The position numbers and the translations under genes were made by a program. Under the pieces are notes generated by a model that did not search any database, had not been told where the DNA came from, and worked only from the letters and a program-made list of their open reading frames with translations. Positions 10,940 through 47,688 of a DNA stretch of 64,000 nt are shown here, piece by piece. Source of the DNA: an uncultured Armatimonadetes bacterium (GTDB taxonomy: Bacteria > Armatimonadota > UBA5829); the NCBI GenBank assembly GCA_963711155.1, contig CAVQDB010000004.1, forward strand, positions 336,486 to 400,485. Direction: 5' to 3'. Every line of letters starts with the position of its first letter. The stretch's first letter is position 1.

Positions 10940-12276
10940 TTAGTTGCTGATGATCCGACCGGTGTTGGCGTCGATTCGGACCATCTTCGGCTTGGGCTTC
11001 ACTGGCCGCGCCTGCGTTGATCGCTTGGCATCCGACGCGCGCTTCGCCGACTTGGCCGCCTGCCGCTTCGGGTGTCGCGGAGCTTCCTGCTTGTTCTGCT
11101 TGCCCTTGACCTCGGTCGCCTTGCCTCCCGCGCCCTTGCCGAGAGCATTGCGCTTGAGCTTGAGCTCGCACGAGTAGCCGTCCTGGAAGACGTGCCGCAC
11201 GGAAGTGCAGTAGTAGGTCCCTGAGAACTTCCTGCCGACGCCCCTGACCTCGATGTTCTGCTTTGCCACAAGAGCTCGGGATGCCGATGGTCATGGCCGT
11301 CGCTTCGACCTGCTTCATCTCGGCGTTCTTGAACTGGCTCTCGGCCTTGTCCTGAGCCGGCTCCTGCCGAGGCTCTTCGTGAAACGACTCCGAGCGCTCC
11401 GATGCTCGGCACGATCTTGCCGGACTCCTGCTTCCTGAACTTGCCTTCGCCCGTGCTGCCATCGACGAGATATGTCTTCTTGCCGAGAGACGCCCGATCC
11501 GGCGTCGTGGCGTTGTTCGCCTTGTGCTCGACGGGCTTCTTCTTGCGCGGGTCGACGCCGACCGCTTTCGTCTCGGTCCCCGCGCCCTTCACCGACTGCG
11601 ACTGCGTGGACGGCTTGAACGAGCGCAGCACGCCCTCACGGTCGGTGAAGTACTCCAGCACAAGGGCGGGCCTCGCGGCGAGTCCGCGCGGGTGAAAGTG
11701 CAGCTCGTCGTCCTGAACGTAGAACACATATCCCGTCACCCCTTTGCCGTCGCGGTCCCTGGACTTCGCGGCCAGCTCCTTCAGGAACTGCGCGTCCGAC
11801 TTGTTCGCCTGGACAACCCGCAGATGCCGGCCGACCGTCTTCGTCACGACCGGCGTCAGCCCGTGTTCGCGGGCGATCTGCTCGGCGATCTCGGAGTAGA
11901 GAATCCCTGGAGCCGGCTTCTGCCAGACCCGCTGGATCTGCTTGCCCGCGAGCTTGTGGCCCTTGTCGTAAGCCTTGAGCTGGATAGTCGGGTCGCCGCC
12001 ATCCGGGAAGTCGTAATCTATCTCCTTGATGACGGCGACCTTCTTTAGTGAGAGGTCATCGGCATACCCGAAGCGGGCGACGATCTCGTTGCCTTCCTGG
12101 AACAGCGGATCGTCCACGAACTGCAAATACCGGTCGGTGATAGAGACCTCCATCACGTCGAGTTCCTCCTCGTTGTCCTCGAAGACGAACGAGGTGATCT
12201 CGTGCGTGATGTCCTTTGACAGCCTCCTGCCCTCGATCTCTATCAGGAATGTGGGCTGATATACGTCTAGCTCCAC
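10940..12276 (-). CDS. Phage late control D-like protein (gpD / baseplate hub family); at least 2 apparent frameshifts (11280-11420)
   Basis: VELDVYQPTFLIEIEGRRLSKDITHEITSFVFEDNEEELDVMEVSITDRYLQFVDDPLFQEGNEIVARFGY... and C-terminal ...NIEVRGVGRKFSGTYYCTSVRHVFQDGYSCELKLKRN match the Phage_GPD pattern. The probable start is GTG 12276; the track ORF starts at 12312 inside the promoter motif. Confidence 0.8.
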
Positions 12277-12309
12277 TCGACCCGCCTCGGGTGGTCGAAC
12301 GACCTCTCC

Positions 12310-12344
12310 CATTGATTACTTACCGGGGAAGCGGGGAAGTGTCG
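12310..12344 (-). promoter_or_regulatory. Copy A of a 5-copy conserved promoter-like motif
   Basis: Minus strand reads CGACACTT-N12-GGTAAGTAATCAATG, directly upstream of gpD. See the other copies at 30399, 39862, 44332 and 47467. Confidence 0.55.
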
Positions 12345-12518
12345 AGGACTGCCACTAAGCATGTGAAAACTGGACTGCGGACTCGCAGATGCATCTTGGG
12401 ACAGAGAGGAGCGATTGGCCAATACAGGTGGGGGTATGGAAATGGGTGACGTGAGACTTGCTGAGCGTCAGGCCAAAACGTAGGCAGTTAGCGTTTCGGC
12501 TTGCAGGAATCACCGTGT

Positions 12519-13843
12519 CTACGCTTCGGGATAGAGACGGACAGCAAGCCCAAGGTGTGCGCCAACATACTCGACAAAGTCTTTGGTCGGCATATCAAAT
12601 CCACCGTCCGTGACGATAAGCAATTCATTAACACCGGCGTTCTTGGCCGGTCCCTCAATGATCTCAATCAACGGCCTGGCATTTGTCCCATCGTCCAAAG
12701 CTAGACCGGTATAGGTGTCGTGGCCGTCCTGCAACCATTTATGGAAGCCGGTCATGCACTGTGCGCTACCAGCGAAGCAAACAAAATCGTCTATGCATCC
12801 ATGGTCTTCGCCTTTTTCCAGAAGCTCGGATCGCAATGAACTGAGAGCACTAGGCAGAGAGTCACTGAAGCTACTTGACAAATCGATACAGACCAACCTG
12901 TTCAGTAGTGACGGGTGGAGTTGCTCCAGCTTGTCCAGTAGCAATCCAAGCCCTCCACCGCCCGGATGGCAGTCGTAAATGAGAAACGCACCTCGGCGAA
13001 TTCAACTGGATTTTCCAGCCCAAGGCCACTCTTGTCGAAATACTCAGCAACAAGAGAGAGGTCAGCCCCAAAGCTAGTCTTGTAACGCTCTGCTGTTTCC
13101 TTGTAGTCAGATAGCGTATACCCGCCCGCTTCGGAATGCTTGGGGTCCAGACTCCACATAGCTTTCGCGTCAACAGATGGGCCGGACAGCAGCGATATGT
13201 CGGGCATGTTTCCCGACGACCTATAGAGCTGATAGAAGAGGTAGTAGCTTTGGCTGCGCCCGTGGACTACAGCGCACGGTTGTGAGCTTCGAGCGTACGA
13301 AAGCGACCACTGAAAAGGCAGACTGCCTCCACGTTGTTGTGTTTGGAGCAACTCGACTTTGTATCCTTGTCTGCGCAGCCATTGAACGACCGTTAGAAGC
13401 ATCCATATTTCGTACAACTGCGGACGAGTTGACCAGATGTCCAAACGGATAAGGTCCTCCAGCTGGCTCTCTCGTTGAGCTAGGTTGCCGAGCAAGAAGG
13501 CATCTTCAAGGAATCTGTCAAGCAGAGATGGAAACGCCTTCGAAGTGCATCTGGCGATATCAGACTCGGAAAGCTCCCCGCGATCAGCATGTCGTGAGCC
13601 GCGACGACCTGTGCGCAAGGGCTTGTTTAAGGTTCTTTCCGCAACACTGACGAGCTCGTGAGCATCACGAAGGATGAGAGTGAGCATTTGTGGTCGTAAT
13701 CCGGTCGGAATGGCCTCGATCTTATCTATCAGTGCAGCAACCTTGCTGACCAGATGAGCGAGAACACTCTGGGCGCGTTCATCGGATCTATCTCTGTAGT
13801 CGTAGACCGTTTCGCGTCGTATATACGAATCCACGACGTTCAA
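12519..13843 (-). CDS. PD-(D/E)xK nuclease-like (McrC/DUF2357-like core) fused to a vWA domain; 1 apparent frameshift near 12950
   Basis: Nuclease-like core: LYEIWMLLTVVQWLRRQGYKVEL...GNMPDISLL...AMWSLDPKHSE (PD...D-x-K). After the frameshift, ORF 12519..12944 shows a vWA MIDAS-like signature: VCIDLSSSFS (DxSxS) ... LLIVTDGGFD. The region is visibly lower in GC than its neighbours. Confidence 0.5.
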
Positions 13844-13912
13844 ACGTCGGCTAGAGCGGGGCTCCGCATCTTCAAGAAGACTCCTCCATATCGGACGGAA
13901 GCTCCGCCAGCG

Positions 13913-14305
13913 TTAATGAACGTCCTGTAGCTCCGCATCCAACCTCGACCAATCACTTACTGATGCCATATCGCTGAGCAGGCCGATTGTTTGTTGAGAT
14001 AGATCGAGATCCACTGCGTCTCCGCTCGCGGTAGGGTCTTTCAGCATGAAGATGCACCCTGTAGTTCTAATTGCTATGCCGAAAGACTCGAGCGCGGAGA
14101 ACACCTGCTGCAGCATCCGTAGGGTTGGGTCGGCGGCAATCAGCACCAGCCGAACCACCTCATATCTTGGGAGGGAAGAGAGTGTATCTGCGAGTTGTGT
14201 CGGATTGGAGTCGTCAGGTAGCCCGCACGCAGCAGCGATTCTCTGGCGCTCGTGTGAGTCGATCAATGACAAAAACCTGCGAGTTGAGATTGCGAAATCG
14301 TCCAT
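13913..14305 (-). CDS. Hypothetical protein (first gene of the low-GC cassette)
   Basis: Intact 130-aa ORF (MDDFAISTRRFLSLIDSHERQRIAAACGLPDDSNP...). No family recognised. Confidence 0.4.
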   Translation of the reverse strand: MDDFAISTRRFLSLIDSHERQRIAAACGLPDDSNPTQLADTLSSLPRYEVVRLVLIAADPTLRMLQQVFSALESFGIAIRTTGCIFMLKDPTASGDAVDLDLSQQTIGLLSDMASVSDWSRLDAELQDVH

Positions 14306-14525
14306 CTAGTAGGCGACCATATAGGTTGATAGTCCGGTGCAATTGACAGCTAGCCGTTGAGTCCCGACATGAGTCAATGACGACTCCTCCGCCACTGGGC
14401 AAGCCGAATCCTTCATTCTGCACTCTGCGTTTGCGTCGGGCCTGTGCCGAGGCAAGCCAAGAATTTGCGATTCTCGACCCACGCATTCCCGTATGCAACA
14501 CCTGCTTAGTCCGTGTCCCACGTGT

Positions 14526-14816
14526 TCACACGAGCAGGCGCATTTGCACGAGTTCGGCCGACGCTACTCTCAGCACCATCCCCACCTCCAACTCCAGCGG
14601 AGAGAAGATGTCGTTGTAGTCGCAGATCACCCACCACAGATCAGCGCGGCCGAGGTAGCGGTAGGCGATGAGGTCGATCCGGTCGCCCTCGACCACGGTG
14701 TGGAAGACATCATCGGGCTGAGGCGAGGTGTCGATGCGAGGCCGCGTGCCCAGGAACTCCTCCTGCCCATCGACGTAGAGCACGCACGTTGCGTATCTGG
14801 AATCCGGCCCTATCAT
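14526..14816 (-). CDS. Tail protein X (P2 gpX-like, LysM-like fold)
   Basis: ...HTVVEGDRIDLIAYRYLGRADLWWVICDYNDIFSPLELEVGMVLRV matches the Phage_tail_X/LysM pattern. An ATGA overlap joins it to the upstream gene. Confidence 0.75.
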   Translation of the reverse strand: MIGPDSRYATCVLYVDGQEEFLGTRPRIDTSPQPDDVFHTVVEGDRIDLIAYRYLGRADLWWVICDYNDIFSPLELEVGMVLRVASAELVQMRLLV

Positions 14817-15285
14817 CTGCGCACCTCCGTGTAGCTGACTGACTTCTGCACTATCTCCTCAAGCGTCATCTCCACCTCCGCGTGCTGCGGCAGAAGGCTT
14901 CTCGGAGTCGAACATGTGGAAGTAGCGCGCCCGCACCTGGCGCACGATGCAGAGCACGCCCGGATAGAGGTCGCCGAGGAAGAAGAGCACCTTGTGCGGG
15001 GCGTTCTTGAGCATGGTCTTCGTCGTGCTGCGGGTAGAGAAGCGACTGCAGCCAGGCAACTTTCTGCTTCACAGGTCCCTTGAAGAACACGAGCTTGAAC
15101 GCGATCTTCCGCGCTTCGCCCGCCACATACTGATACCTCGGGTGGCTCATGCCCGGAATCTTTATCGTGGCGAAGTCGGTGCTCTTCTCGTCGGATACCT
15201 CGTCCGGGTTGTACTGGAACTCCAGCGACTCGCGCGTCACCACATCCACGAGATAGCCGGTCGTCTTCTTCAGATCGAGGCGCAA
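14813..15285 (-). CDS. Contractile-tail tube-like / tube-initiator protein (partner of gpX); 2 apparent frameshifts (near 15060 and 14890)
   Basis: TTG start at 15285. (M)RLDLKKTTGYLVDVVTRESLEFQYNPDEVSDEKSTDFATIKIPGMSHPRYQYVAGEARKIAFKLVFF... follows the FQ(Y/F)NP pattern seen in CIS tube-family proteins encoded before LysM/X genes. Confidence 0.5.
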
Positions 15286-15616
15286 AGCCGCACCTCCCGG
15301 ATCTCGACGATGCGCTTCCCAAGCAGCCGGGCGTGCGCGATCTCCCGGCGCATGCCATCTGAATATCCCATCGCCGACGTAGACCCAGACCTCATCGCAG
15401 ACTTCCATGAACCGCAGACCCAGGGATATTCCGAGCTCGCGCTGCGCCGGATCGTCGTCATCAAGGAACCTGCGTGTAGAGCAGGTGCGGAGCGAACGGC
15501 GCATATCCGGCCTCGACAGCCATCCGGCAGAGAGCCAGCGCGGTCTCGACGTTGCGCTCGATGTCACCGACGTATCTGCTGCAGATGAAGACCCGCCTCG
15601 CCTCAGGCCGACTCAT
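15270..15616 (-). CDS. Nucleoside 2-deoxyribosyltransferase-like fold protein (DUF4406/DUF1937-like); 2 apparent frameshifts
   Basis: MSRPEARRVFICSRYVGDIERNVETALALCRMAVEAGYAPFAPHLLYT...LDDDDPAQRELGISLGLRFMEVCDEVWVYVGDGISDGMRREIAHARLLGKRIVEI was reconstructed from three frames. The pattern recalls NDT-like phage proteins. Confidence 0.45.
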
Positions 15617-18600
15617 AGTTCTTGACCTTCTGCTCCCGCATATCTTTGTAGACCGACCGAGCAATCTGCCGGCCATCGAGCTTCGTGGTCACGCTCACCT
15701 CGATTGGCCGCTCGGAGAGTCCATCGAGCTTCGCCAGTATCGCTTCAAGAAGCGGTCGCAGATCGTCGGAACGAGCGGCGATGCCAGAAGCCTGCTCGGA
15801 CGCAAGAGACCCGCGCGTGACTGCCAAGGAGCCTTGATCTGTCAGCTGCTCTGCCGGCTGGTTGCGCGGCGGCGATGCTGGGCACAGCGCCTGCGACAAC
15901 CGGCGTGAGCGCGAGCGTGGCCGCCAGAGCGCTCGCCGGCAGTCCGACGTTCAGCAGGCTTCTCGCTGCTCCCAGGCTGCCGTGAAGCGCCCGGGCAGGC
16001 AGTTCCGACGCGCGAGAGATGCCCGCGCTGAACGCCTCAAGCATCGCCGCGCCGCTTCGGGTAAGCGTAGAAAGCGGACCCTCCTGCGCATCCGAGAATG
16101 GCAGAAGTCTTCTCAGCCGCGACAGCGCCGACCTTGCCGCCTCATACGGAGCGGCGACAGCCGAGCGGATACCGCTGGCGATGGTGGTCATGACAGATCG
16201 GCCGCTTTGGAATGCCGCCGACACCAGGCTCGACGAACTGGAGAGGATGTAGGAGAACGCGTTCGATGCCGCTCCGCGCACGGTAGACCATGCGGCAGAC
16301 GCTCCGCTTGCCAGCGCGCTGAACGGCGCTCGCAGCCAGCCCGCGGCATTGGATGCCATTGAGGTGATGCTCGACCAAGCCGATGCGGCCGATCCCCTGA
16401 CACGCGACCAGACGGACCCAGCGAAGCTGCCTATCTGTGAGAATGCTCCCGAGACAGTGGAAACGAGGCCCGACCCAAGGGCACGCAGTTCGTCCCAGAC
16501 CCAGCTTGCCGCGTTAAGCATGCTTCTGAACACCGCGCTCAGGACCTGACCGGGGAGCGAGATGAGAGACTGCATTCCCTGGGCGAGAGTGCGCAGGATC
16601 GCCGCACCGGAAGCCGTGAGAGTTGAGAGCGGTCCCTCCTGGGCATCGGAGAATGGCAGCAGCCTTCGAAGCCAACCCAGCGCTCGCTTCAGCACCTCGA
16701 ACGGATATGTCACCGCCGACCAGATTCCCTGGCCGAGCGTTATGAGTATTCGCTTGCCCGCCTCGGCGAAGTTGATCTGCCCGGAGATGAGCGAGCGGAT
16801 CGTGCCGAAGACGCTGAGTGATGGTGCTGACGACCGGCAAGCTCGAGAGATGCGGCCAGGAGCGAGTTGCCGGCCGACCTGAAGAAGCCACCAACGCCGG
16901 AGAACGCGTTCCGGAGCCAGTTCCACGTCGCGGATGCGACATCCCGAACCCACAGGAACGGAGTGGACAGGAAACCGAAGATTGCGCCGCCTATTGCCTT
17001 CAGCCCATCGACCACTGAGATGTCGCCGGTGATCATCCGCCAGACTGTGTACGCGACGCGGCCTACAGTAAGCAGCGCTTGGACGATCATGCGCAGCGGA
17101 AGCGAGAAGCGATAGACGTATGGAGCGGCGGCAACCAGCGCCGTGACGATGGTCTTCCCGAACCACACGACAGCCTGGACGACTGCCGCCACAATCCGGA
17201 TCACCCAGGAGAGCGGGTAGACGATGAACTTGATGATGTAGGCTGCGACCTGCGCGATGATGCCGAGGATCGTGCCGAGAGTCTGGCCGAAGCTCTTGAA
17301 CGAGGATGCATCCACGGCGGTAGTCGCCAACCCGAAAGCCGCGAAGACTGAGCCGAGCGCCTTACCCAGTTCGCCGAACGCTCCCATCAGCGCACGCACC
17401 GCTGGTTCCAGGATCGCCCGGATCTTGCCGAAGACAGAAGAGAACGCCTCCCACAGCCCTGACAGAAACTGTCGCACCCGGTAGTAGACCTGGAACACAG
17501 TTGTGACGAACTTGAGCAAGCCCGCTGCCTGCAGCTTCTGGGCGAGTTCCGCCGACATCTGTCCCGTTCCGCCCGAGAGCGACCCGATGAGCGCTCGGAC
17601 TCCCTGGAAGACAAGGCTTATACGATTCCACACGCCGAGGACGACATCCCGGATTCCGGCGAAGTTTGTCTCCCAGGCTTTCTTCAGCGCGATCACCGCG
17701 ATTACAACCGCCGCGATGACAGCAACCACCGGCCAGAAAGAGGCCGACACTGCCGATCCCACGCCGGCAAGCATCGGTCCCAGCGCCGCGATTCCGGCCT
17801 TGACTGCCGGCAGCACGATGCCGACCGTCCCCAAACCTGCGGTCACACTGCCCACCACGACCAGCGCCGCGCCGAGGGCCGCACACAGAGTCAGCACGAC
17901 CCGAGTCACACCCGGCGTCGATCTCGCCATGTCCTGTAGGTGCAGAATGAACCTGCGACACGCCCTGAAAGAGCGGGATCACCACAGGCAGCAGCGTACG
18001 CCCGAGGATTTCGGCCAGGTTGGCAAGCTGCTGCTTCACAAGCCCATACTGCGAGCCGATGTCCAGGTTCATTGCCTGGGCCATCTTCTCGCGTGACGAC
18101 GGTTCCAGACTTCATCGCCTGCTCGACGGACTTGATATTGCCCTCGAGCTGGTCCATCCCCATCGACATCTGAAGCAGGAACCGCACTGCCTCGTCCGAG
18201 CCGAATGCTTTCTTGAGCTGGAGTTGAGCCTCGGCGTTCGAGAGGTCGGGAAAGCCGCGCTTGAGTTCTTGCAGGATCGGGATGATGCCCTTGAGCCGTC
18301 CCTGGGTGTCGGTGAACGAGAGTCCCAGTTCCTGACCGGCCTTGGCAACCTGCATCATGAATGCCTTGTATAGCGTGCCTGCTTCCGAGCCCGGCATTGT
18401 TGTCTGAAGCTGACCGAGGATCGCGATCTGCTCTTCAAGAGGCACGTTGGATGCGGCGGCGATTGCGCCGATGTTCTTGATGGCCTCGGCCATCTGCGGA
18501 CCGGTGGTCTTGAACTGGGCGACGGTCTGAGCGAGCGCGCCTGAGAACATCTTCGCCCAGTCGATGTCGGACATGTCCTTGGCGAGCGGCTTGAAGATGC

Positions 18601-30398: not shown

Positions 30399-30434
30399 CA
30401 ATGGTTACTTACCGGAGGAAATCAGGAAGTGTAG
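30399..30434 (-). promoter_or_regulatory. Copy B of the conserved promoter-like motif
   Basis: Minus strand reads CTACACTT-N13-GGTAAGTAACCATTG. It lies 41 nt upstream of the methyltransferase A start codon. Confidence 0.55.
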
Positions 30435-30576
30435 AGGGCACCATTGAGTGCGTGAGGGCCGACCATGGAGTCCTAGCCTCATCCATTCCGCATGTCCATG
30501 TCACGCGTGTGTTTGACAGAAGGCAGTTGCTGGCTGAAATTCTCTACCATTCAGCCTTGGATAACAGGGGGAGTAT

Positions 30577-39861: not shown

Positions 39862-39897
39862 CACTGATTACTTACCGGGGCCGGCGACGAACTGTAG
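39862..39897 (-). promoter_or_regulatory. Copy C of the conserved promoter-like motif
   Basis: Minus strand reads CTACAGTT-N13-GGTAAGTAATCAGTG, upstream of the portal gene. Confidence 0.55.
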
Positions 39898-40099
39898 GCT
39901 CCGCCGTGTGCTACCTTTACGATGCCGGCAATACTGCCGGGTTTGCTGTTCGTTCACGCTGAGAGCACTGCGGCCACGTCATCATTCCCCGCTCAAAATA
40001 CTGGTATTTACCGAATCATATAAGTAGCACTCCACGTGGCACAAACATGATGGCAGGAGAATGCGGCAAGCGCCCTGACTAAGCGTGGAGGTGGCAAGC

Positions 40100-44331: not shown

Positions 44332-44367
44332 CACTGATTACTTACCGGCGCATTCCGAGAAGTGTAG
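44332..44367 (-). promoter_or_regulatory. Copy D of the conserved promoter-like motif
   Basis: Minus strand reads CTACACTT-N13-GGTAAGTAATCAGTG, about 70 nt upstream of the ATG at 44262. Confidence 0.55.
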
Positions 44368-44387
44368 TACTTTCGCGTATATGTTTT

Positions 44388-47466: not shown

Positions 47467-47502
47467 CACTGATTACTTACCGCTACAGGGCACGAAGTGT
47501 AG
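47467..47502 (-). promoter_or_regulatory. Copy E of the conserved promoter-like motif
   Basis: Minus strand reads CTACACTT-N13-GGTAAGTAATCAGTG, about 190 nt upstream of the primase start. Confidence 0.55.
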
Positions 47503-47688
47503 GGAAGCGGTGCAGCCGACAGAGGCTAAAGACACATACGTATGCACATTGACAGTCTTGACCAGCCTGTCACAACACTTTACGCGCGTTCCCCGCAAAT
47601 GCCGCAGGATGTAGTCACACACGAAGATGGCATGATCCATGTACAACACCACTGAGTGCCTGGCCGATCAGGGAAAAGAGGTGCCAAG

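Follow-up and report, generated by a model that had tools for sequence, protein, structure and literature searches.

A predicted McrC-type nuclease–vWA fusion protein encoded at a cargo hotspot within a prophage tail module

A lower-GC insert between two tail genes

The window analysed here is a stretch of 64,000 nt from an uncultured Armatimonadetes bacterium (GTDB lineage Bacteria; Armatimonadota; UBA5829), comprising positions 336,486 to 400,485 of the forward strand of contig CAVQDB010000004.1 (assembly GCA_963711155.1). The subject of this report is a gene on its minus strand, at 12519–14305, which lies amongst the tail genes of a prophage. The original prediction, made from the sequence of the window, described this region as a two-gene cassette inserted between tail genes X and D, consisting of a 130 aa orphan gene and a larger gene for an McrC-like nuclease fused to a von Willebrand A (vWA) domain. 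The presence of an insert of approximately 2.2 kb is readily confirmed, both by the GC profile, which stands at 0.535 across the 2,213 nt from 12313 to 14525 compared with 0.617 and 0.625 in the flanks, and by the identity of the neighbouring genes.

The left anchor is a 96 aa LysM/X-like tail (baseplate) protein (14526–14816, minus strand; phrog_7145, E 9.7e-21), for which matches to LysM (E 0.0012) and Phage_tail_X (E 0.0085) both fall just under cut-off. The right anchor is a gpD-like tail protein (10940–12312, minus strand; phrog_52, E 1e-26 and 4e-10). For relatives of this prophage lineage, 117 loci were located and 80 retrieved (L005–L084), with all hotspot counts given herein referring to the 66 loci that hold both anchor genes; the left anchor is 57–80 % identical to the gene upstream of gpD in these 66 loci. 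At its upstream edge the insert begins with a spacer of 220 nt (14306–14525, minus strand), in which there is no recognised promoter, no sigma-70-like site and no repeat found elsewhere in the window. Flanking direct repeats around the insert were looked for, and none were found.

Three open reading frames, one gene

The insert contains three minus-strand open reading frames (ORFs), of 130 aa (13913–14305), 313 aa (12902–13843) and 141 aa (12519–12944), which, from comparison with their homologues, are consecutive pieces of a single predicted protein of approximately 600 aa. The 130 and 313 aa ORFs share a frame, and are divided by a single TAA codon (13913–13915, minus strand) that splits the gene at the position of a variable linker, with the conserved peptide RWRSFRPIWRSLL located downstream. 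The residues that immediately follow the TAA (RWRSFRPIWRSLLEDAEP) are conserved in homologues, whilst the first start codon available beyond it is only a TTG at 13843. When the genome is searched with the gene, one continuous match is returned that contains this one TAA. The second interruption is a frameshift at 12993–13000 (minus strand), where 8 nt are present in place of the 9 (three codons) seen in homologues, a net loss of one base. Correspondingly, the tblastn alignment leaves one frame at 13001 and is taken up again in the next frame at 12992. The single frameshift that had been proposed between the nuclease and vWA portions is therefore real as an interruption of the reading frame, and it marks the join of the 313 and 141 aa ORFs.

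The same cannot be said for the division into two genes. A word-indexed search returned only three relatives. In one of these, a JGI metagenome contig (L002), an uninterrupted ORF of approximately 611 aa spans all three window pieces, and the first piece aligns with residues 12–139 of P0005, an uninterrupted homologue of 611 aa. A phmmer search with the L002 protein over 1.84 billion representatives yielded 144 relatives, around 40 of which align end to end at 565–631 aa, and a profile search recovered 64 proteins, 51 of them of 575–631 aa. With more than 50 uninterrupted homologues of approximately 600 aa, the normal form of the family is one protein, and the supposed orphan gene is its N-terminal domain. 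The case also serves as a caution, in that most apparent gene splits in the source assembly are noise, and what passed for an orphan gene arose through a single stop codon.

One could still envisage a true operon, in which a 130 aa regulator or antitoxin is made alongside a separate nuclease–vWA protein by termination and re-initiation. In keeping with such an arrangement, the N-terminal domain is split from the remainder in three of the four closest loci, within a linker of low model confidence, and one family member (L088, 7932–9317 of a 17.8 kb contig) lacks the entire N-terminal domain and has an opposite-strand gene in its place. Set against this are the more than 50 fused homologues, the conserved peptide that follows the TAA despite there being no start codon before 13843, and interruptions that vary in both position and kind between loci, with the stop in one relative (L003) corresponding to a Q codon in a near-identical sequence. 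As such, an operon of two proteins is considered very unlikely.

Domain architecture

Residue conservation was assessed using family alignments of 30 and 51 sequences. Structural predictions were made with AlphaFold2 (AF2) for the intact L002 protein on the 51-sequence alignment (mean pLDDT 83, pTM 0.76), and a second model covers the first two pieces of the window gene with the TAA read as Q (pLDDT 80).

Piece 1 (13916–14305, minus strand) is the N-terminal domain (residues 1–125), which in the AF2 model forms five to six helices and a beta-hairpin. It harbours an invariant RTTG motif (14068–14057), for which R81-T82-T83-G84 are unchanged throughout alignment A5, and T82 and G84 also in A2. 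Profile searches revealed no relative of this domain in Pfam or the PDB.

Piece 2 (12998–13912, minus strand) comprises the linker, a helical bundle with a beta-hairpin (residues ~130–290 in the model) and a predicted PD-(D/E)xK nuclease core (~290–430). This core is modelled with high confidence (pLDDT ~90) as alpha, six-beta, alpha, beta, including helices at 296–314 and 401–415, the latter with the RYRD motif, and a strand at 419–424. Across both alignments, E301 (RPQLYEvW), P371-D372 (M-P-D), D390-x-K392-H and E424 are invariant, and are accompanied by the RYRD helix. In the window, the corresponding motifs are LYEIW (13417–13403), MPD (13207–13199) and DPK (13147–13139), with the conserved residues of the core being E at 13411–13409, D at 13201–13199, D at 13147–13145, K at 13141–13139 and E at 13045–13043; the RYK/RYRD helix starts at 13087. 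McrC-like proteins have as their nuclease domain DUF524 (PF04411; PMC1913061, PMC11090510), for which four motifs (E; PD; DAK; ..YRD) and extra beta-strands have been described (PMC1913061); the family core shares motifs I–IV and these strands. The PF04411 profile scores 14.4 bits on the window ORF (E 0.041), and thus does not reach the Pfam gathering cut-off of 22.1 bits; it also matches eight of 30 members, all below threshold, with a best E-value of 1e-4. The core is therefore assigned to the DUF524/McrC type by its motifs, its topology and these sub-threshold profile matches, and DNA cutting is predicted. A structure search of BFVD gave as top match a protein annotated as ‘Restriction enzyme’ (E 2.7e-4, probability 0.99), and structure matches of the nuclease within the PDB were weak (EcoT38I, E 0.05, probability 0.18; Hjc resolvase, E 0.31, probability 0.44). 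More distant proteins of 665–811 aa that share only the nuclease core are without any Pfam domain. With regard to the original assignment of a McrC/DUF2357-type core, the McrC part holds, in the form of DUF524-like motifs, extra strands and PF04411 matches below threshold, but the DUF2357 part, which in McrC would be the N-terminal domain that binds McrB (PF09823), is not supported, as neither PF09823 nor PF10117 finds a match at E ≤ 0.1 in the window ORFs or in 30 members.

Piece 3 (12519–12992, minus strand, with the stop codon at 12519–12521) is a short vWA domain with a complete metal ion-dependent adhesion site (MIDAS) motif. It spans residues ~470–595 and, at approximately 135 aa, is shorter than usual. 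In the window, the MIDAS elements are DLSSS (12884–12870), GT (near 12689–12684) and TDG (near 12611–12603), such that its residues are D at 12884–12882, S at 12878–12876, S at 12872–12870, T near 12686–12684 and D near 12608–12606. Within the family, D478-x-S480-x-S482 and D568 are invariant, and T542 is conserved in at least 90 %. Foldseek matches this domain with a probability of 1.00 to the vWA domains of CMG2, integrin I, factor B and ITIH1 (1shu, 8ft6, 1bho, 1q0p, 6fpy), over ~134–160 aligned columns at a target TM of 0.4–0.5. At the sequence level, Pfam VWA_2 matches just one of 30 members, and a profile of the whole family against PDB sequences produced coiled-coil noise and a weak match to 3rag_A. 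The C-terminal vWA domain with its DxSxS MIDAS motif was thus correctly predicted, as was its fusion to the nuclease in one protein, which in the window copy is interrupted by the frameshift.

Origin of the two interruptions

The TAA and the loss of 1 nt are, judging by the state of the surrounding sequence, most probably assembly errors, or at most very recent lesions. The source genome (G000) consists of five contigs with a marker completeness of only 60.6 %, and its rpoB gene (C5:1447869–1452267), aligned with the intact gene of a congener, falls into approximately nine successive stretches in different frames, with stop codons lying within the aligned regions. The tail genes around the insert display two to four frameshifts each in comparison with intact relatives; the gpD-like gene, for instance, is split into three frames by two frameshifts, where those of L006, L007 and L009 are intact. 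Since rpoB and the nearby tail genes are broken in the same fashion, the two lesions in the 1.8 kb of the cassette, which are fewer per kb than in the neighbouring tail genes, lie within assembly noise, and the frameshift requires no biological explanation in an assembly that splits rpoB around nine times. Furthermore, the window copy retains every residue that is invariant in the family. More generally, frameshifts or nonsense codons anywhere in this genome are best treated as assembly noise unless confirmed by reads.

Interruptions near the same linker also exist in two of the three closest relatives. In L003 a stop falls at residue ~114 (L003:377–379), a position at which the near-identical P0047 has Q. 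L004 changes frame at residue ~122 (L004 ~530), past the N-terminal domain, and at least three times in all. A further feature of L004, at ~1750–1870, is an apparent compensating frameshift pair inside the vWA domain, as judged from its garbled protein sequence. Because the interruptions in L003 and L004 differ in site and kind, and the L003 stop occupies the place of a Q codon in P0047, they appear to be recent lesions rather than a conserved two-gene design. Programmed recoding at the TAA or at the frameshift was considered and rejected on the same grounds: the interruptions of the window, L003 and L004 are dissimilar in both site and kind, P0047 has Q at the L003 stop, and rpoB is equally broken.

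A different possibility is that the lesions are real and that the window copy is a recently inactivated pseudogene, dead prophage cargo of a family whose function would be unaffected. In its favour, assembly errors more typically take the form of indels than of in-frame stops, the closest relatives are likewise interrupted, L003 by a nonsense codon and L004 by three or more changes of frame, three of six lesions fall within residues 114–140, and nuclease genes are often counter-selected. Conversely, lesions of these kinds, amongst them stops within alignments of high identity, are also present in the essential rpoB, the density of lesions is lower in the cassette than in the adjoining tail genes, and all invariant residues are intact. 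A pseudogene is consequently regarded as unlikely, albeit not to the degree of the two-protein operon.

The X–D junction as a cargo hotspot

Comparison of the 66 related tail modules reveals that the site of the insert is a variable one. In 45 of them the LysM/X-like and gpD-like genes are adjacent, only ~10–160 nt apart, and as few as 2–4 nt lie between the LysM stop codon and the ATG of gpD in the most closely related empty loci. The insert seems to have replaced an originally tightly coupled X-stop/D-start junction. The remaining 21 loci hold 0.65–2.9 kb of unrelated, mostly lower-GC cargo at exactly the X–D junction, in agreement with the moron-type cargo position proposed originally. Within this cargo, PADLOC identified AbiLi and AbiLii in L071, AbiEi in L075, PDC-S01-type ATPases in L015 and three similar loci, and PDC-M41A and B in L081. 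Other occupants include a RelE/MqsA-type toxin–antitoxin pair, a GHKL-ATPase/restriction endonuclease (REase) fusion, a SUKH protein, a non-specific endonuclease with a trypsin-like protease, an IS1595 element, a RecQ helicase and an M24 peptidase. The nuclease–vWA gene itself is in none of the other occupied junctions amongst the 66 loci.

The closest relative with an occupied hotspot (L005:3571–5682) encodes a 704 aa fusion of a GHKL ATPase (HATPase_c_3) with an HSDR_N-type nuclease, which from its domains looks like a MORC-like defence candidate.

According to the published definition (PMC9122126), a prophage antiviral hotspot is a small locus (1–5 kb) that is flanked by two conserved phage genes and has a high turnover of content. 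The X–D junction accords with this definition, being empty in 45 modules and occupied in 21, with cargo that is unrelated between loci and includes defence systems. The hotspots described for P2-like phages and P4 satellites (Rousset et al. 2022, PMC9122126) resemble it in their size (~1–5 kb), their placement between conserved phage genes, their high turnover and their known defence cargo. They differ in that the present hotspot belongs to another phage lineage, found in Armatimonadota, Desulfobacterota, Planctomycetota, Acidobacteriota and other metagenome-assembled genomes (MAGs), and is positioned inside the tail/baseplate module, rather than at the cos-proximal old/tin site. The highly conserved flanking genes could be used as anchors with which to mine metagenomes for new systems, as has been done for P2 and P4.

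With respect to the notion that X and D are normally adjacent in P2-like modules, this is accurate for the lineage of the window prophage (45 of 66), but not for phage P2, on whose genetic map the two genes lie apart.

Distribution and genomic company of the family

The family is rare and sporadic. Its gene was found neither in 40 close relatives of the source genome nor in a sample of 400 further genomes of that phylum, and most homologues are chromosomal, far from phage genes. Members are labelled ‘hypothetical protein’ in the source databases, or have a blank name. Neither the window ORFs nor 30 members match any Pfam or NCBIfam model above threshold, and PADLOC-DB v2 returned nothing for the window ORFs and one stray match (E 0.025) amongst the 30 members; as had been supposed, the architecture corresponds to no named system in these collections. 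The nuclease–vWA arrangement was likewise not found in the literature searched.

Eight other loci were available for comparison of neighbouring genes, and no gene is common to them, so that the family gene stands alone. A gene for a McrB-like AAA+ GTPase is absent from the window cassette and from all eight loci, and neither a MoxR AAA+ ATPase nor a third component (VMAP, iSTAND, TERNS3) lies beside any of the nine. The company of individual members is often defence-like or mobile in nature, which is no more than suggestive: TIR and RES genes are near L087, CHAT proteases and an AAA_15/21 ATPase near L088, Dnd genes and an integrase near L099, a NACHT protein near L102, an integrase and a DUF3854 gene near L100, and a subtilase and AAA pair near L086.

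Given that the window gene sits inside a tail operon, one might ask whether its product is a structural component of the virion or tail, or else helps to assemble the tail. Position is the sole point in favour of this, and it is outweighed by the fact that 45 of the 66 related tail modules, and every other occupied hotspot, are without the gene, by the lack of a PHROG match, the absence of relatives from 2.9 million viral contigs and 50,697 phage genomes, a GC content below that of the flanks, and the chromosomal location of most homologues at a distance from phage genes. A structural role is thus scarcely tenable.

An active protein with a role outside defence also merits consideration, for example a nuclease of selfish or addictive character, a factor that counters defence, or an enzyme that processes DNA on behalf of the mobile element carrying it. 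Family members adjoin integrases (L099, L100), vWA domains occur in DNA-repair and transcription complexes (a fold search matched a chain of a nucleotide-excision-repair complex), and the hotspots also hold RecQ, an M24 peptidase and an insertion sequence element. However, no partner or target gene is conserved, the lack of relatives in phage and plasmid collections argues against a core function in mobile elements, and most of the cargo that can be recognised at this site is of defence type. Such a role is therefore judged distinctly unlikely, more so than inactivation of the window copy, if far less remote than a structural one.

Comparison with known systems

Of the systems already described, the McrC/DUF524 proteins of McrBC Type IV restriction (PF04411, PDDEXK_7) are the nearest in terms of the nuclease. 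Common to both are the E in the first helix, the PD and D-A/P-K motifs, the ..YRD of the second core helix, the extra beta-strands after the first helix, and a helical region ahead of the nuclease. Unlike McrC, the window family has no McrB-like GTPase neighbour, no detectable DUF2357 domain and no score at the Pfam gathering level, and it possesses a C-terminal vWA domain as well as an unrelated N-terminal domain of ~125 aa. With neither a detectable DUF2357 domain nor McrB, the family does not qualify as McrC.

A second parallel is provided by the vWA-MoxR ternary systems with REase effectors (Kaur, Burroughs, Iyer, Aravind 2020; PMC8195603), in which a MIDAS-bearing vWA domain and an effector of REase fold similarly belong to a single polypeptide, encoded amongst genes of defence-island character. 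There, a vWA-L linker joins the effector to the C-terminal side of the vWA domain, and a MoxR AAA+ ATPase and a third component are required (PMC8195603). The window family has the reverse order, with the nuclease ahead of the vWA domain, and conserves neither an ATPase nor a third gene.

The third is the TerY-P triad of CoCoNuT McrBC systems (TerY-like vWA, PP2C phosphatase and Ser/Thr kinase; PMC11090510), where a perfect DxSxS...T...D vWA is again functionally linked to an McrC-type nuclease system. There, however, the vWA is a separate gene that is accompanied by the kinase, the phosphatase and McrB/McrC homologues, none of which are present at the locus described here.

Putative function

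The window gene can be described as a nuclease-based conflict gene in a prophage hotspot, from a family that is real and conserved, at a hotspot that is itself useful. On balance, we infer that it is probably a defence or superinfection-exclusion gene. This reading, which the original prediction shared in viewing it as a defence moron, is plausible because the same junction in relatives holds AbiL, AbiEi, PDC-S01, PDC-M41 and a toxin–antitoxin pair, and it gains contextual support from the members elsewhere that adjoin TIR, RES, CHAT, NACHT and Dnd genes.

The accessory gene, for a protein of ~600 aa, is cargo in a small, high-turnover hotspot of a myovirus-type prophage. Under the defence reading, its product would be a stand-alone nuclease, expressed by the prophage and directed against foreign DNA as it enters or replicates. 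Such a nuclease would have to act in the absence of an McrB-type GTPase, the usual motor of McrC nucleases. Instead, the vWA MIDAS might bind a protein ligand, either a phage protein or a second copy of itself, and in so doing gate DNA cleavage, with the N-terminal RTTG domain possibly recognising DNA or holding the enzyme inactive. In the vWA domains of integrins and CMG2, the coordination sphere of the MIDAS metal is typically completed by an acidic side chain that the protein ligand contributes. A phage protein or a second protein copy could therefore act as the switch.

A more specific, and more tentative, proposal is that the protein constitutes an undescribed single-protein immune module, in which an McrC-type nuclease carries a built-in vWA/MIDAS sensor in place of the McrB motor, binding of an acidic residue, from a phage protein or from a second protein copy, to the MIDAS metal triggers cleavage, and the RTTG domain is autoinhibitory or DNA-recognising. 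A role of either kind could explain the separation or loss of the N-terminal domain seen in some loci. In this full form the proposal is rather doubtful, albeit still worthy of consideration. Should the broader defence reading be right, the gene would add a compact one-gene candidate to the nuclease-based anti-phage systems, and would provide an McrC-type nuclease that works without a GTPase under vWA control, an arrangement absent from PADLOC, Pfam and NCBIfam. It would also mean that a hotspot for defence cargo exists within the tail module of a prophage lineage that spans many uncultured phyla.

A number of observations weigh against a defence function. The assignment of the nuclease rests on motifs, topology and profile matches below threshold; a Foldseek search of the vWA-less model against the PDB returned nothing significant (the best being Hjc, probability 0.44), and a profile of the nuclease core found no match amongst PDB sequences. 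The family matches no PADLOC, NCBIfam or curated Pfam model, and the defence-island company is anecdotal, coming from eight loci without a control-set comparison. No member is present in IMG/VR (2.9 million contigs), the GenBank phages (50,697 genomes) or the PLSDB plasmids, and as such the gene is not a typical phage moron. In addition, two of the three closest relatives are interrupted as well (L003 by a stop, L004 by frameshifts), so the gene could often be inactivated, and the two lesions of the window copy may, with a minority chance, reflect a genuine recent inactivation.

Promoter-like motifs and further features of the tail module

The downstream edge of the insert is formed by a bipartite promoter-like motif (12313–12360, minus strand; cgACACTTCc, 10 nt, CGGTAAGTAATCA), which abuts the ATG of gpD. 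CGGTAAGTAATCA occurs in five copies within the prophage at ≤1 mismatch (12313–12360, 30402–30450, 39865–39910, 44335–44380 and 47470–47515), all on the minus strand, against a chance expectation of 0.49, and thus the promoter-like copy that had been noted immediately downstream of the cassette is a genuine repeated element. Each copy has a (C)TACACTTC-like box upstream, at a distance of ~10–13 nt, and is itself followed directly by a start codon (ATG, GTG or TTG). The absence of a spacer ahead of the start codon suggests, from the sequence layout, that late prophage transcripts may be leaderless or nearly so. A similar GGTAA(A/G)TA element is found in those relatives that have a gap before gpD. 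With a promoter-like motif directly before gpD, the X–D junction appears to mark the border between late transcription units. A border of this kind would account for the tolerance of insertions at this site.

At 12270–12312, the gpD gene of the window has an N-terminal extension of ~11 codons relative to its relatives, the ancestral ATG position being GTA here, and it is the new ATG that directly abuts the promoter-like motif. Relatives of the gpD-like protein at 70–86 % identity are spread over MAGs and isolates from many phyla, including Armatimonadota, Desulfobacterota, Planctomycetota, Acidobacteriota, Chloroflexota, Nitrospirota, Gammaproteobacteria and others (loci L005–L084), with several Armatimonadota MAGs amongst the closest (79–86 %), a hint as to the host phylum. 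Two gpD-like copies exist in several genomes, and conservation across phyla is unusually high for a phage tail gene. On account of this conservation, an eCIS or tailocin was weighed as an alternative to a prophage, and was set aside.

Finally, a nucleoside 2-deoxyribosyltransferase-like gene (15270–15690, minus strand; phrog_355) is situated between the tape measure and tube-like genes. It is found in the same place in L006, L007 and L009 (57–89 % identity per aligned segment) and, being kept in these relatives, is a fixed part of the tail module rather than a moron specific to the window, where it is read in three frames.

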